From NCBI GenBank assembly GCA_030428105.1, contig JAUIBE010000005.1:6476-70475 (forward strand): a DNA stretch of 64,000 nucleotides, written 5' to 3'. Positions 31,425 through 34,651 of the stretch are shown here, in pieces. Source of the DNA: Gammaproteobacteria bacterium (lineage in GTDB: Bacteria > Pseudomonadota > Gammaproteobacteria > Xanthomonadales > SZUA-36). The translations under genes and the position numbers were made by a program. Positions within the stretch are counted from its first letter, which is position 1. Each line of letters opens with the position of its first letter. A model generated the notes under the pieces. It made no database searches. It had not been told where the DNA came from and saw only the letters and a program-made list of their open reading frames with translations.

Positions 31425-32576
31425 TTAGCGGGCATCAAGATTGATCTTGACGGTATCCCGCAGGACGCTGTCCAGGCCGCCGAAGACGGTCAGTCGATCG
31501 ACCTTTTCGGTAACCTTTTCCAGCGTTTCCAGCTCCTTCAAACGCATCAGCGTCGGGTTTTCGTCCATCAGCTTTGCGGTGTTGAGCAGGCTACGCGTTG
31601 CCGCGGTCTCCTCGCGCCGCTTGATCACGTTTGCGTGGGCTGCGTTCTCGGCCTCGACCACCCGGTTGAGAATTTCCTTCATCTCGCCCGGCAGGATGAT
31701 GTCCTTGAGGCCCACCTTTACGATCTCCACGCCGTAATCGCAGATCTGGCTGGCGACCGTTTCGGTGATGGTGCCGTCAAGCTCACTCTTGTTGGCCAGC
31801 AGGACGTCCAGCGTGCGCGTGCCGATTGCCTGGCGCAGTGCAAATTGCAGGGATGCGTACAGGGTTTCGACCACGTTGACGCTGGTGCGGCGAGCCCGCA
31901 CCGGGTCACTCACGCGGTACTGGGCAGCCAGGTTCACCCGCAGGCTGACCTTGTCCTTGGTCAGGATTTCCTGGCCGGACACGTCCATCGCCTGGATACG
32001 GGTTTCCACCAGCTCCACCTTGACCTCGTGGTTGTAACGCCAGAAGGCGTAGACACCCGGGGCCAGGGTACGGACGAGGTTGCCGTTAATGGTCAGCAAG
32101 CCAACCTGGTCAGAGGCCACTTCAACCGGCAGCACCGTGTTGCGAACCGCTTCCAGCAGCTGGCGATCACGCGGGCGAGTCAGCAACCGTGCGAGATCCG
32201 TTGGGATCTCGGCCTCGTCGCCGATCGTCTCGATCACCACCGTGGTTTCCACCGGGCCGTTCCAGTACACCGCGCGGGAAGCCGGCGGCAACACGTCCAC
32301 CAGCCGCTCGTTGCGGTACACCAGGCCGACCTGGTCGGCGGCCAGTTCGTAAACGTCGAAGTGACGCGCCATCAGTTCCGGGTTGGCAGCCAGCAATACA
32401 TCCAGCTGCGGGTGCTCGAAACGCGGATGCGTTACGTCGTACACCTGCCATTCGGTTCGGCCAGGAGCGTCGAAACGCCAGTACACGCCCGGCTCTGCGA
32501 TGGACTGCAGAGTACGGTTGACGAATACCAGCGCACGCTCGTTCTGAGCCACGACCGTTCGATTCAATCCGAACAT
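31425..32576 (-). CDS. SPFH/band-7 (stomatin/flotillin/HflC-like) domain protein
   Basis: 383 aa. ...KDKVSLRVNLAAQYRVSDPVRA...GLKDIILPGEMKEILNRVVEAENAAHANVIKRREETAATRS... is the SPFH domain followed by a coiled-coil. A strong AAAGGAGG SD precedes the ATG. Confidence 0.8.
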   Translation of the reverse strand: MFGLNRTVVAQNERALVFVNRTLQSIAEPGVYWRFDAPGRTEWQVYDVTHPRFEHPQLDVLLAANPELMARHFDVYELAADQVGLVYRNERLVDVLPPASRAVYWNGPVETTVVIETIGDEAEIPTDLARLLTRPRDRQLLEAVRNTVLPVEVASDQVGLLTINGNLVRTLAPGVYAFWRYNHEVKVELVETRIQAMDVSGQEILTKDKVSLRVNLAAQYRVSDPVRARRTSVNVVETLYASLQFALRQAIGTRTLDVLLANKSELDGTITETVASQICDYGVEIVKVGLKDIILPGEMKEILNRVVEAENAAHANVIKRREETAATRSLLNTAKLMDENPTLMRLKELETLEKVTEKVDRLTVFGGLDSVLRDTVKINLDAR

Positions 32577-32835
32577 TTTCTTTCCTCCTTTGCTTTTGGG
32601 TTAAAAAATGGCGAAAAAGCGCCTGCCGCTGCTGCGAGGGTGATCCCGCGAGCGCGCTGCGGACCCAGGCCCTGGCTGCGAAACATCCGGGCACCCCCTT
32701 TTGCCCCTCCGTCCGGCGACCCGGTTCCGGGTTGGCAGCGTTCCGGTGAGATCACTCGGGTCGCAGCCACGGTGCGGTCATTGGGCAGGGCATTGCCTGC
32801 TCAAAGCCGCGCGGCGCTTTTCCGCCCTCGTGGGT

Positions 32836-32903
32836 GCGCAAGGCACCCTCATGTGGAGTCGAACCACAGCCCGTAGGCTTTACCTCTAGGCAACCTGACA
32901 AGT
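32836..32903 (-). ncRNA. tRNA-like element 2 (second T-arm module, incomplete cloverleaf)
   Basis: A second UGUGG-UUCGACU-CCACA T-arm lies ~77 nt downstream of the first on the same strand. I could not find a matching 5' acceptor or D-arm. It may be a degenerate tRNA or part of a larger structured RNA. Confidence 0.25.
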
Positions 32904-32979
32904 TGCTCGGATAACGGGAGTCGAACCCGTGACACATCGAGTCAATATCGATTGCTCTACCCATCTGAGCTATATCCAC
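32904..32979 (-). ncRNA. tRNA-like element 1 (cloverleaf with atypical features; candidate tRNA-Gln(UUG)-like pseudo-tRNA or Y-RNA-type tRNA mimic)
   Basis: Minus strand reads GUGGAUA-UA-GCUC-AGAUGGGU-AGAGC-A-AUCGA-UAUUGAC-UCGAU-GUGUC-ACGGG-UUCGACU-CCCGU-UAUCCGA-G. The D-arm, anticodon arm and T-arm (GGTTCGACTCC) are canonical. Three features are atypical: position 33 is A rather than the near-universal U, the 1:72 pair is a G.A mismatch, and the 3' end is GCAA rather than CCA. Coordinates approximate. Confidence 0.45.
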
Positions 32980-33226
32980 ATGGTGCACTGGTCACTCCTT
33001 CGGCTCGGCATACAGCCGTGCACGGCACGCTGCACCGGACGGGCTTTTGGAACCCGAACCGCTGTAACCGTCGGATCTGACACATGCCTCATTTCGTCGA
33101 AGCAGGCTTCGACGCAAACCAATGTTCCTGCCCCCCCGGTGACGGCCGTGCGCCGCAGATCGATACGACCGTCACCTTGCGCCGCCGCCAGTGCCTTCAC
33201 TGGGACGGCTTGAACGCGAACACTTC

Positions 33227-34423
33227 CTAGCCTTTTACACAAACCACCTGTTTCAAGGTGGCTACTACTTCAACCAGGTCAGACTGGTTGGCCATCACGG
33301 CATCGATGTCCTTGTACGCTGCCGGGATCTCGTCGATCACGGCCTTGTCCTTACGGCATTCGACGCCGCGCGTCTGCTTCACCAGGTCGTCCTTGCTGAA
33401 GGCCTTCCTGGCCGCAGTCCTGGACATCTTCCTTCCGGCGCCGTGGGCGCAGGAGTGGAAAGCGTCGGCGTTACCCTTGCCCTTCACGATGTAGGACCTG
33501 GCGCCCATGCTTCCCGGGATAATGCCCAGGTCGCCGTTGCCGGCACGGATGGCACCTTTACGCGTGACATAAACCTCGGCGTCAAAGTGCTGCTCCTTCG
33601 CCACGTAGTTGTGGTGACAGTTGATGGCGGTGTCCTCGATGGTGAATTCCGGCAGTGTTGCCTTCATCGCCTCGATCACATTGGCCATCATCACCTCACG
33701 GTTGGTGGCGGCGTAGTCCTGCGCCCAGTCGACTGCGAACACGTAGTCGTTGAACAACTCGGTGCCCTCGTCGAACCACGCCAGGTTCTTGTCCGGCAGC
33801 GTTACGCCACGCTTTTCCAGTTCGGTCTTGGCGGCTTCAATGAAGTGCCTGCCGATCTGGTTACCGATGCCCCTGGAGCCGGAGTGCAGCATCACCCACA
33901 CATTGCCGACGGTATCCAGGCAAACCTCGATAAAGTGGTTGCCGCCACCCAGCGTGCCGATCTGGCGCGCCCAGCTCTGGTCTTTCTCGGCCTTACGGCT
34001 GATCAGCTTCGGGTGCTTGTCCAGGATCTGCTTCAGCCCCTGGCTCACCTTGCTGGCCGCGGCGGTCGGGGTGCGGTCATGCTTGTGCATGTAGAACCCC
34101 ACCGGTACGGAACGCTCAATCGCGTGCCTGACCTTGGCCAGGTTGTCCGGCAGCTGGCGGGCGCTCAGGCTGGTCTTGACCGCCATCATTCCGCAGCCAA
34201 TATCCACGCCCACGGAGGCCGGAATAATGGCCCTGTGGGTCGGGATCACGGATCCCACCGTGGCGCCAATGCCCAGGTGAACGTCCGGCATGGCCGCCAC
34301 GTGGTGATGCACAAACGGCAGGCTGGCGATATTGCGCAGCTGCTCTTCCGCAGCCGCATCAATGTCGTTGGTCCAGATGTGCACCGGAACCCTGGTGTCG
34401 TTGATTGTTTTGCTAATTGCCAC
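33227..34423 (-). CDS. rtcB: RNA-splicing ligase RtcB (3'-phosphate/5'-hydroxyl RNA ligase)
   Basis: 398 aa, ...IGTLGGGNHFIEV...HSGSRGIGNQIG...HNYVAKEQHFD...CAHGAGR..., the full set of RtcB metal-binding and GMP-His motifs. Confidence 0.93.
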   Translation of the reverse strand: MAISKTINDTRVPVHIWTNDIDAAAEEQLRNIASLPFVHHHVAAMPDVHLGIGATVGSVIPTHRAIIPASVGVDIGCGMMAVKTSLSARQLPDNLAKVRHAIERSVPVGFYMHKHDRTPTAAASKVSQGLKQILDKHPKLISRKAEKDQSWARQIGTLGGGNHFIEVCLDTVGNVWVMLHSGSRGIGNQIGRHFIEAAKTELEKRGVTLPDKNLAWFDEGTELFNDYVFAVDWAQDYAATNREVMMANVIEAMKATLPEFTIEDTAINCHHNYVAKEQHFDAEVYVTRKGAIRAGNGDLGIIPGSMGARSYIVKGKGNADAFHSCAHGAGRKMSRTAARKAFSKDDLVKQTRGVECRKDKAVIDEIPAAYKDIDAVMANQSDLVEVVATLKQVVCVKG

Positions 34424-34450: not shown

Positions 34451-34488
34451 CTGGCGGGCGAAAAAAAACCCCCGGAGGCAAGGACCTG
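34451..34488 (-). terminator. strong intrinsic terminator ~30 nt upstream of the rtcB start codon (candidate attenuator)
   Basis: Minus-strand RNA ACCCCCGCAGGUCCUUGCCUCCGGGGGUUUUUUUU: a 6-bp G/C stem plus 3 further bp, followed by 8 U. Its 3' end lies only ~27 nt from the rtcB ATG, leaving no room for a promoter between them. Confidence 0.75.
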
Positions 34489-34546
34489 CGGGGGTTTCAT
34501 CCGTCACAGGTCTGCTAATCGCAGACCCGGAATTTCAGGGGCTGCA

Positions 34547-34651
34547 TTAACTCATGGTCGCATCTTGAAGGCGCAGGGGTTTGCCACAGGCAAACTCGCC
34601 CGTGACCGATACGCGGCCTTCGTATGGATATGAGATAAACCAATTCATCAT
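34547..34651 (-). CDS. candidate 34-aa leader small ORF upstream of the rtcB terminator
   Basis: ATGATGAATTGG... translates to MMNWFISYPYEGRVSVTGEFACGKPLRLQDATMS* and ends ~55 nt before the terminator hairpin. SD is weak, and third-position codon usage is AT-richer than the genome, so coding status is uncertain. Confidence 0.2.
   Translation of the reverse strand: MMNWFISYPYEGRVSVTGEFACGKPLRLQDATMS

Follow-up and report, generated by a model that had tools for sequence, protein, structure and literature searches.

The 64,000-nucleotide stretch of contig JAUIBE010000005.1 analyzed here, referred to below as the window, comes from a gammaproteobacterium of the Xanthomonadales and carries on its minus strand a tRNA-shaped RNA element lodged between two protein-coding genes. 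The upstream gene, rtcB (33227–34423), encodes a 398-residue RNA 3'-phosphate/2',3'-cyclic-phosphate to 5'-OH ligase (Pfam RtcB, PF01139, E = 6.8e-132), which scores under the NCBIfam cut-off of the E. coli RtcB equivalog. The downstream gene (31425–32576) encodes a 383-residue SPFH/Band-7, or "slipin", protein that is predicted to be soluble (Pfam Band_7, E = 7.8e-31). Both genes lie on the minus strand and are separated by a gene-free gap of 650 nucleotides (nt). The cloverleaf in this gap starts at 32979 on the same strand, 247 nt past the end of rtcB at 33227, and another 330 nt separate the tRNA-like end from the SPFH start at 32576. The window presents a minimal rtcB–RNA–SPFH unit, with no tRNA array, no HNH gene, and neither rtcR nor rtcA.

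The original prediction had placed a near-complete, atypical cloverleaf on the rtcB strand about 250 nt past the stop, and both the position and the fold hold. ARAGORN calls a tRNA-Gln(ttg) at 32905–32979, the sole tRNA-like call in the 64 kb. The Rfam tRNA model (RF00005), whose gathering score is 29, matches here at 46.2 bits (E = 1.1e-6 over the full window). We term this complete tRNA-like cloverleaf (32906–32979, minus strand), which is also supported by covariation, module B. Direct reading of the sequence yields the D stem (GCUC/GAGC), the anticodon stem (AUCGA/UCGAU), and a T arm (ACGGG-UUCGACU-CCCGU), as had been proposed. The bases that maintain the tertiary contacts of the L shape are all in place: U8, A14, G15-C48, G18G19, G46, U54U55C56, and A58. 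The anticodon loop, UAUUGAC, departs from the standard 7-nt loop, with A33 (32946) where U33 belongs, UUG at 32943–32945, and C38. Nor is there a free 3' end consisting of a discriminator base and an encoded CCA. G1 faces A72 in a mismatch, the sequence GAGCAAC follows the acceptor where CCA would be expected, and the base after A72 opens the next conserved helix. Of these anomalies, A33, the G.A mismatch, and the missing CCA had been singled out beforehand and are borne out by the sequence and by the Rfam alignment, which marks the 1:72 pair as non-standard. A tRNA is thus called at this site, yet its atypical features are real, and the call is not that of a fully canonical tRNA.

Conservation of the element was examined at related loci, designated by L numbers. 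A scan of species-representative genomes with RtcB gave 80 loci (57–69% identity), and a scan of metagenomes with the SPFH protein gave 80 more, 68 of which have enough upstream sequence. Alignment A3 contains the window and 21 relatives from four or five clades, and a hand-drawn structure of 38 pairs was tested on it. This structure covers module B together with two downstream elements described below, module C and the P7 hairpin. Covariation at orthologous loci, which had been asked for, is present: 93.8% of cells are paired, versus 39–50% when the partners are slid by one to three columns, and double changes occur at 24 pairs, versus 3–8 in the slid controls. None of 500 column shuffles matched the observed values. 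The acceptor stem and the anticodon stem abound in compensatory changes; no variation is seen in the D stem and almost none in the T stem. The 1:72 position is unpaired in 11 of the 22 sequences, and position 72 is nearly always an A that runs into the next helix. The G.A mismatch and the absent CCA are therefore traits of the family.

The anticodon loop behaves differently from the elbow. The closest relative, L081, has an RtcB 87% and an SPFH protein 84% identical to those of the window, and about 90% of the tRNA body is the same, yet its loop is CUGUUAA (Asn-like, GUU) versus UAUUGAC in the window. Among 51 distinct RNAs there are 27 anticodon-loop variants, the commonest being CUCAUAA (11) and CUGAUAA (6). 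Some loops have 6 nt, a GAAA tetraloop is found in four lineages, and A33 recurs in three other relatives. The "anticodons" that ARAGORN assigns at SPFH loci include Met, Ile, Asn, Val, Leu, Thr, Lys, His, and Pro, plus two- and four-base calls. Because the elbow is frozen while the anticodon drifts, we conclude that the RNA does not decode; judged from its sequence and those of its relatives, module B is almost certainly not a decoding tRNA. The substitution pattern indicates that this is a structured RNA under purifying selection for a tRNA-like three-dimensional shape, and that what is selected is helix geometry and the elbow formed by the D and T loops rather than the anticodon or an aminoacylatable 3' end.

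These data bear directly on the simplest account, namely that module B is a remnant of a tRNA array or of tRNA-targeted integration, a tRNA-Gln gene that either still works or has recently decayed. Both ARAGORN and Rfam call the sequence a tRNA, and long arrays of ordinary tRNA genes are present at related loci. Against this, module B combines A33 and G1.A72 with the lack of CCA, its 3' strand runs on into a conserved helix, and its anticodon identity is lost in L081. A pseudogene would also not explain why compensatory changes keep the fold across distant lineages. We regard this account as highly improbable, and annotators should not count the "tRNA-Gln" call in the decoding set of the organism. 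An integration-site repeat was likewise rejected, as the two T arms in the gap have only their loop sequence in common.

The loop variants raise a second alternative, in which the RNA is a decoy or sentinel: a mimic that is cleaved by, or soaks up, anticodon nucleases or tRNA toxins, shielding tRNAs or yielding a signal or substrate for RtcB. Many relatives keep a 7-nt loop with U33 and a purine at position 37 (CUCAUAA, CUGAUAA, and CUGUUAA; Met-, Ile-, and Asn-type), and loop identity switches between close relatives, as an arms race predicts. The module often neighbors long tRNA arrays and a gene for an HNH endonuclease, and related roles have been proposed elsewhere, a sponge role for array tRNAs (PMC8421152) and a competitive-inhibitor role for the tRNA mimic YrlA (PMC7790460). 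However, several lineages carry a GAAA tetraloop or a 6-nt loop that would no longer mimic a target, and the window loop, having A33 and C38, imitates real anticodon loops poorly. A simple decoy would also leave the conserved 5' domain and module C without a role. We therefore consider a decoy function improbable.

Comparison of the loci also changes the identity of the likely partner. The original prediction tied the RNA to rtcB and did not include the SPFH gene, which proves to be the better predictor of the RNA. An SPFH homologue lies on the rtcB strand in 8 of the 80 genomic RtcB loci, and all 8 have a tRNA-like sequence a few hundred nucleotides ahead of the SPFH start, regardless of the side on which rtcB lies. 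A same-strand T-loop motif precedes the SPFH gene in 67 of the 68 metagenomic loci, mostly 270–550 nt before the start, and ARAGORN calls tRNAs on the SPFH strand upstream of the gene in metagenomic loci. Taken together, 76 of 77 loci have the motif in the 750 nt that precede SPFH, against a chance expectation of about 0.09 per 750 nt. Because a same-strand tRNA-like element precedes SPFH wherever rtcB lies, the RNA has its constant partner in the SPFH gene. An adjacent rtcB is found in the window, L081, and about 20 further loci. The RNA is thus physically linked to the gene for a soluble, cage-type SPFH protein and often to the gene for RtcB. A blastn search of the RNA against plasmids gave no match, and no SPFH relatives were confirmed in viral contigs.

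The same regularity is what would be expected of a cis-regulatory leader, that is, a 5' untranslated region of the SPFH mRNA that controls transcription read-through, stability, or translation. Such a leader might be recognized or cut by RNase P, RtcB, or a tRNA-directed nuclease, or might sense tRNA status. The RNA is always on the SPFH strand, with its tRNA-like part about 270–550 nt upstream of the start wherever rtcB lies, and the sole sigma-70-like promoter site found lies upstream of rtcB, with none between that gene and the RNA. In Citrobacter, the region upstream of the slipin gene is bounded by a divergent rtcR and the slipin start. The window also has a weak terminator-like hairpin followed by a U-run (GGCG-CUUUUU-CGCC + AUUUUUU; 32603–32623, minus strand, read from the sequence) about 14 nt before the SPFH ribosome-binding site. 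The stem of this hairpin is kept in L081 and its score falls below the threshold of the terminator scan; it is possibly the 3' end of the RNA or an attenuator. On the other hand, the spacer between RNA and start codon is long and poorly conserved, differing by 133 nt between the window and L081, and comparison of the clades revealed no conserved alternative pairing that involves the ribosome-binding site or a terminator. Position alone is also not discriminating, given that YrlA and YrlB are encoded within the Salmonella rsr-yrlBA-rtcBA operon (PMC7790460). A leader function is, in our judgment, unlikely, if less so than a decoy.

Module B is not a free-standing unit. Sequence comparison identifies it as the tRNA-shaped core of a larger conserved noncoding RNA of about 280 nt or more, extending over approximately 32832–33088 on the minus strand. 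The order of elements in this RNA is a 5' domain formed by a three-way junction of helices H1, P2, and P3, an NCCA motif, module B, module C, and the P7 hairpin. Downstream of module B, the original prediction had noted a second, isolated T arm 77 nt away. A T arm is indeed present at 32852–32868, reading (U)GUGG-UUCGACU-CCAC(A), but it begins 38 nt past the tRNA-like end, with the two T loops 62 nt apart, and it is not isolated. It belongs to module C (32852–32906, minus strand), a second tRNA-like half without acceptor or D stems that is supported by alignment A3, covariation, and a covariance model. Module C opens with a 5-bp stem carrying a 7-nt loop, UUGUCAG (32890–32906), followed by a GGUAAA linker, and the first base of this stem is the one that follows A72. 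Among the relatives the loop is variable and the GGUAA of the linker is conserved. Between the linker and the T arm lies a small C(UACG)G hairpin (32869–32878), of a GNRA- or UNCG-capped type. The P7 hairpin, GGGUGC-CUUGC-GCACCC (32832–32848), is 96.2% paired and has changed on both sides at five of its six pairs. Beyond it, RNAalifold predicts a P8 hairpin, GGCG-GAAAAG-CGCC (32813–32826), with covariation at alignment pairs 345-347/354-356 and a GNRA cap in the relatives.

On its upstream side, the conserved structured RNA reaches about 105 nt beyond the cloverleaf. The 5' domain in this part is closed by H1, a long interrupted helix recovered in the minimum-free-energy (MFE) fold and by RNAduplex. 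Its 5' strand (33066–33088; GGCAU, GUCA, UCC, CGGUU) pairs with 32985–33005, part of a 3' strand at 32981–33005 (AGCCG, GGA, UGAC, GUGC) that ends in the conserved NCCA. RNAduplex gives -25.7 kcal/mol for 33066–33088 against the segment before the CCA (z = -3.7 in the window), and the pairing potential is retained in all 22 relatives despite their differing sequences (-17 to -27 kcal/mol, mean z = -2.26). Two hairpins lie inside H1. P2 (33036–33061; CGG-UU-CGGG ... CCCG-U-CCG) has 90% of cells paired and five pairs changed on both sides in alignment A5. P3 (33011–33034) consists of an outer stem, UGCAG ... CUGUA, and an inner stem, CCG-UGCA-CGG, and its 3' strand corresponds to a conserved GYGUGUA motif; the outer stem is 96.4% paired, with double changes in three of five pairs. 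For P2 and P3 together, 88.4% of cells are paired versus 28–45% in slid controls, and there are 10 double-change pairs versus one to three. The CCA at 32981–32983 lies 1 nt ahead of module B, and an NCCA or CCA sits 0–2 nt before the first nucleotide of module B in most of the 22 aligned relatives.

Two covariance models were used to determine how specific these parts are. R1, the model of module B, module C, and P7, gives a single match in the window, at 139.7 bits, which places the element far beyond chance. It exceeds 105 bits in 37 other SPFH loci, and paired ordinary tRNAs of arrays score 50–70 bits. R2, which models the 5' domain alone and includes P2, scores 67.2 bits in the window. It gives one match per locus, abutting the tRNA-like module on its upstream side, in 67 metagenomic and 4 genomic SPFH loci as well as the window, and zero matches in SPFH-less rtcB loci or ordinary tRNA arrays. 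The 5' domain is therefore a specific signature of the SPFH-linked RNA class, with no cross-matching of real tRNAs.

Some loci, among them L002, L077, L154, and L156-160, show a "type 1" architecture, in which an extra complete tRNA-like unit ending in GCCA abuts the start of module B. The CCA ahead of module B is at ~6677 in L002, ~2292 in L077, and ~1665 in L073; in type 1 loci it is the 3' CCA of this preceding unit. RNase P cleavage before module B would free an upstream fragment ending in CCA.

Several candidate helices were discarded. A long-range helix suggested by RNAalifold (A2 columns 64-68/319-323) was dropped in favor of the local P7, which covaries at five of six pairs. A "P5" helix, GGUGCA/UGCACC, is missing from the largest clade and would use part of the 5' strand of P3, a hairpin with covariation in every clade. 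A "P4" hairpin proved to be part of H1. Finally, the MFE fold pairs the 5' acceptor strand of module B (CAUGUGGA) with the T arm of module C (UCCACAUG) over 8 bp; this pairing occurs in the window and L081 only and is probably incidental.

The protein encoded by the constant partner was examined by sequence and structure prediction. It has no hydrophobic segment: the maximum Kyte-Doolittle mean over 19 residues is 0.98, and no window exceeds 1.6. The protein is accordingly predicted to be soluble, lacking the membrane anchor of cage-forming SPFH proteins. An AlphaFold (AF2) model with a predicted local distance difference test score (pLDDT) of 75.6 contains two N-terminal five-stranded beta units (residues 1–147), an SPFH domain (148–295), and long helices (297–362). 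In this model, the SPFH domain is followed by long coiled-coil helices, as in cage-forming SPFH proteins, and the structural matches are subunits of the stomatin, HflK/C, prohibitin, and flotillin cages, with stomatin, HflK/C, and prohibitin the best. NCBI names the relatives "slipin family protein", and grouping them at 90% identity gives at least 8000 clusters. Neither a PADLOC model nor an NCBIfam equivalog matches the protein.

The gene arrangement identifies the window RNA with a class that had already been predicted. A preprint (bioRxiv 10.1101/312249) describes b7a-tRNA, a band-7-associated tRNA that Burroughs and Aravind (Nucleic Acids Res 2016) had predicted in RtcB/Band-7 RNA-repair operons, and calls it functionally parallel to YrlA. 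The window contains the same trio of rtcB, a tRNA-like noncoding RNA, and a Band-7/SPFH gene, and it belongs to this class by the gene-context definition quoted there. The class has no model of its own in Rfam 15, and the window RNA matches only RF00005. A similar case was described in Pelobacter carbinolicus (Aklujkar et al. 2012, PMC3543383), where the "mutant tRNA" Pcar_R0061 is flanked by rtcR on one side and by a stomatin-like gene, rtcA, and rtcB on the other, and was proposed to be "a substrate or a guide". Like the window RNA, Pcar_R0061 is a cloverleaf with U33 changed to A, an altered anticodon, no usable (buried) CCA, and compensatory changes that keep the fold; a same-strand stomatin-like gene follows it, and rtcB is in the same operon. 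It differs in that the authors derive it from tRNA-Asn and describe a single cloverleaf, and in that its locus has rtcR and rtcA. The Pelobacter stomatin-like protein is also called a membrane protein, whereas the window SPFH protein has no hydrophobic segment. The window RNA is therefore a rediscovery of a predicted class, and the core idea has been in the literature since 2012–2016. Our studies add the extent of about 280 nt, the 5' domain with its NCCA, the second, acceptor-less module, and the hairpin, and they show the 5' domain to be SPFH-specific; no novelty relative to the 2016 prediction is claimed.

YrlA offers a conceptual parallel, and the original prediction had offered either a Y-RNA-type tRNA mimic or some other RtcB-linked RNA. 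The second half of that suggestion stands, as the window contains a noncanonical tRNA-like RNA linked to RtcB; the first does not. YrlA, too, is a non-decoding tRNA mimic with acceptor-like, D, and T arms encoded in rtcB RNA-repair operons (PMC4201824; Wang et al. 2018), and both RNAs may be viewed, by analogy, as proposed cofactors of a ring-shaped protein. YrlA differs in that its partner is Rsr/Ro60 and a Ro-binding stem replaces the anticodon stem, whereas the window RNA has an SPFH partner, a full anticodon arm, extra flanking domains, and no Rfam Y RNA match. That the window RNA is a YrlA-type Y RNA working with an Rsr/Ro60 encoded elsewhere in the genome is suggested by its position beside rtcB, as in the rsr-yrlBA-rtcBA operons, and by the statement in the preprint that b7a-tRNA occasionally adjoins Rsr (bioRxiv 10.1101/312249). 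However, an Rfam 15 scan of 32500–33400 at E ≤ 10, for which the set of Y-RNA models in Rfam 15 was not independently verified, returned tRNA and only two chance-level matches (E ~3). The 5-bp anticodon stem is complete, covaries, and carries a 7-nt loop, with no Ro-binding stem in its place. The neighbors are RtcB and SPFH, and, in agreement with the earlier statement that the window lacks Rsr/Ro60, no TROVE/Ro60 domain was found among 15 scanned window open reading frames (ORFs) of 430–710 residues. The position of the RNA among relatives follows SPFH, not Rsr. This explanation is very unlikely.

These results allow a role to be proposed. We consider it probable that module B is the tRNA-shaped core of a larger non-decoding RNA, probably co-transcribed with rtcB and the SPFH gene, and that this RNA, by analogy with Y RNA and Ro60, is most likely the RNA subunit of an SPFH–RtcB repair particle. 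In this mechanism, rtcB, the RNA, and the SPFH gene would be transcribed together, which we infer because there is no promoter-like site between rtcB and the RNA and a sigma-70-like site only upstream of rtcB. RNase P may then cut at the 5' end of module B, freeing the 5' domain with a CCA-like 3' end. The SPFH protein, as a ring or cage former, would make up the protein part of the particle, with the RNA as its other subunit. Much as Y RNA does for Ro60, this assembly would recruit or present broken tRNAs for religation, or else RtcB itself. The vault particle, in which the major vault protein has an SPFH-like shoulder domain and is accompanied by vault RNA, offers an analogy only. Vault RNA is not tRNA-shaped, unlike the window RNA, and RNA binding by the window SPFH protein is a proposal only.

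Several points weigh against this proposal. The fixed same-strand position upstream of SPFH fits a cis-acting leader equally well. Most metagenomic SPFH loci have no RtcB within 3.5 kb, and in E. coli and Citrobacter the slipin gene is followed by a nucleotidyltransferase gene, with no RtcB within the flanks shown. Because RtcB is so often absent near SPFH, the RNA–SPFH pair is the constant unit and RtcB is optional. The CUCAUAA and CUGAUAA loops are kept in about a third of the relatives, which means that the loop is not wholly free, a feature that a pure scaffold model would not foresee. Finally, b7a-tRNA had not been experimentally validated as of 2018, according to the preprint (bioRxiv 10.1101/312249).

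The RNA also bears on a broader question. The natural substrates and cofactors of the widespread RtcB repair operons are unclear in bacteria, and tRNA-shaped RNAs recur there, as YrlA with Ro60 and as the window RNA with SPFH. This recurrence suggests that bacterial RNA repair generally involves a tRNA-like cofactor or template. The SPFH-linked class is a prediction only; it is absent from Rfam, and its members are annotated as ordinary or odd tRNAs or not at all. The present analysis defines targets for laboratory work, namely the extent of the RNA, its class-specific 5' domain, and the selected parts, namely the elbows as opposed to the anticodon.

Ordinary tRNA genes are frequent companions of these loci. 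About 40 of the 80 metagenomic SPFH loci (L083-L160) have same-strand arrays of 6–20 ordinary tRNA genes directly upstream of the SPFH-linked RNA; examples are L095 (727–2869), L097 (227–2951), and L106 (511–2040). An HNH endonuclease ORF of about 190–200 residues is found in 33 loci, between the array and the RNA or elsewhere in the locus. This arrangement, an SPFH–RNA module directly after 6–20 tRNA genes and an HNH ORF, matches the cyanobacterial "L-array" neighborhood (PMC8421152) and is shared by many relatives of the window. In Anabaena, derepression of a long tRNA operon is accompanied by that of rtcB, a slipin gene, and a gene for an HNH endonuclease (TrcR regulon, PMC10272220; PMC8421152), and in P. 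aeruginosa an SPFH gene (PaFlo8) lies inside the rtc locus (PMC13086221). The tRNAs of cyanobacterial arrays look ordinary, whereas the window RNA does not, and the window has no array.

Clusters of one to five same-strand tRNA genes also occur directly beside rtcB in several proteobacterial orders, mostly without SPFH (L001 3147–3974, L002 2964–3927, L031, L032 5249–5921, L034 1405–1805, L039, L041 5249–6046, L044 6107–6775, L050 5350–5863, and L051). The species represented are Asp, Gln, Lys, Glu, Met, Tyr, Pro, and Asn, which we take to be largely those cut by anticodon nucleases. Other rtcB loci with no SPFH homologue within 4 kb have a tRNA-like sequence, missed by ARAGORN, directly upstream of rtcB on the same strand. 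These include L070 (3386–3550), L061 (3319–3706), L059 (3637–3748), L067 (1326–1844), and L042 (3260–3420), for which R1 gives 18–43 bits; the L070 sequence has a T arm followed by a D-arm motif.

Enterobacterial slipin genes are preceded by a conserved region as well. In 1632 of 5426 complete E. coli genomes, a region of about 290 nt without annotation lies upstream of the slipin gene, which is followed by the nucleotidyltransferase gene. The instance in E. coli EC1515 (L165 6001–6290) is situated between yjbD and lysC, and a Citrobacter freundii instance is at L164 4500–4817; the Citrobacter slipin–nucleotidyltransferase unit adjoins a divergently transcribed rtcR. By eye, this leader contains a P2-like hairpin and one T arm, UGGGUUCGAUUCCCA. 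It is not detected by R1, R2, or ARAGORN, and its homology to the window RNA is unproven.

A leader block lies just upstream of rtcB at 34457–34651 (minus strand). It consists of a short ORF (34547–34651) encoding 34 residues, MMNWFISYPYEGRVSVTGEFACGKPLRLQDATMS, then a hairpin (~34508–34527), and then a strong intrinsic terminator (stem 34466–34487 followed by eight Ts) that ends about 35 nt before the rtcB start. This ORF–terminator block is kept in L081. In 25 of 93 rtcB loci, a terminator-like hairpin is found in the 230 nt ahead of rtcB. Most of these hairpins follow a short ORF that has a ribosome-binding site and many codons for Asn, His, Thr, Gln, and Tyr; MNSSNTHPS and MLAPQHLETNMNNAR are examples. 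Besides the window, loci with a leader block include L007, L010, L012-L015, L017, L019, L023, L028, L031, L035, L037-L039, L042, L044, L049, L058, and L079. From its sequence, the rtcB leader has the appearance of a ribosome-mediated attenuator, through which failure of certain tRNAs could turn on the operon. The papers searchable here contained nothing relevant on RtcB with leader-peptide attenuation. In an extended and doubtful version of the particle proposal, a multi-elbow RNA of about 280–480 nt would form the core of a soluble SPFH cage, a Ro- or vault-like ribonucleoprotein that captures damaged tRNAs for RtcB, with the operon switched on by the leader-peptide attenuator ahead of rtcB, which would sense ribosomes stalled by breakage of particular tRNAs.

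The neighboring M48, S9, and M20 peptidase genes were considered as parts of the system and rejected, as none is kept beside SPFH or rtcB in any of 160 other loci. No PADLOC defense-system model matches RtcB, the SPFH protein, or the M48 neighbor. About 50 nt past the rtcB stop, at 33138–33176 (minus strand), lies a long hairpin of high GC content (GGUGACGG ... CCGUCACC). This hairpin lacks a U-tail and is kept in L081, which otherwise diverges to either side of it.

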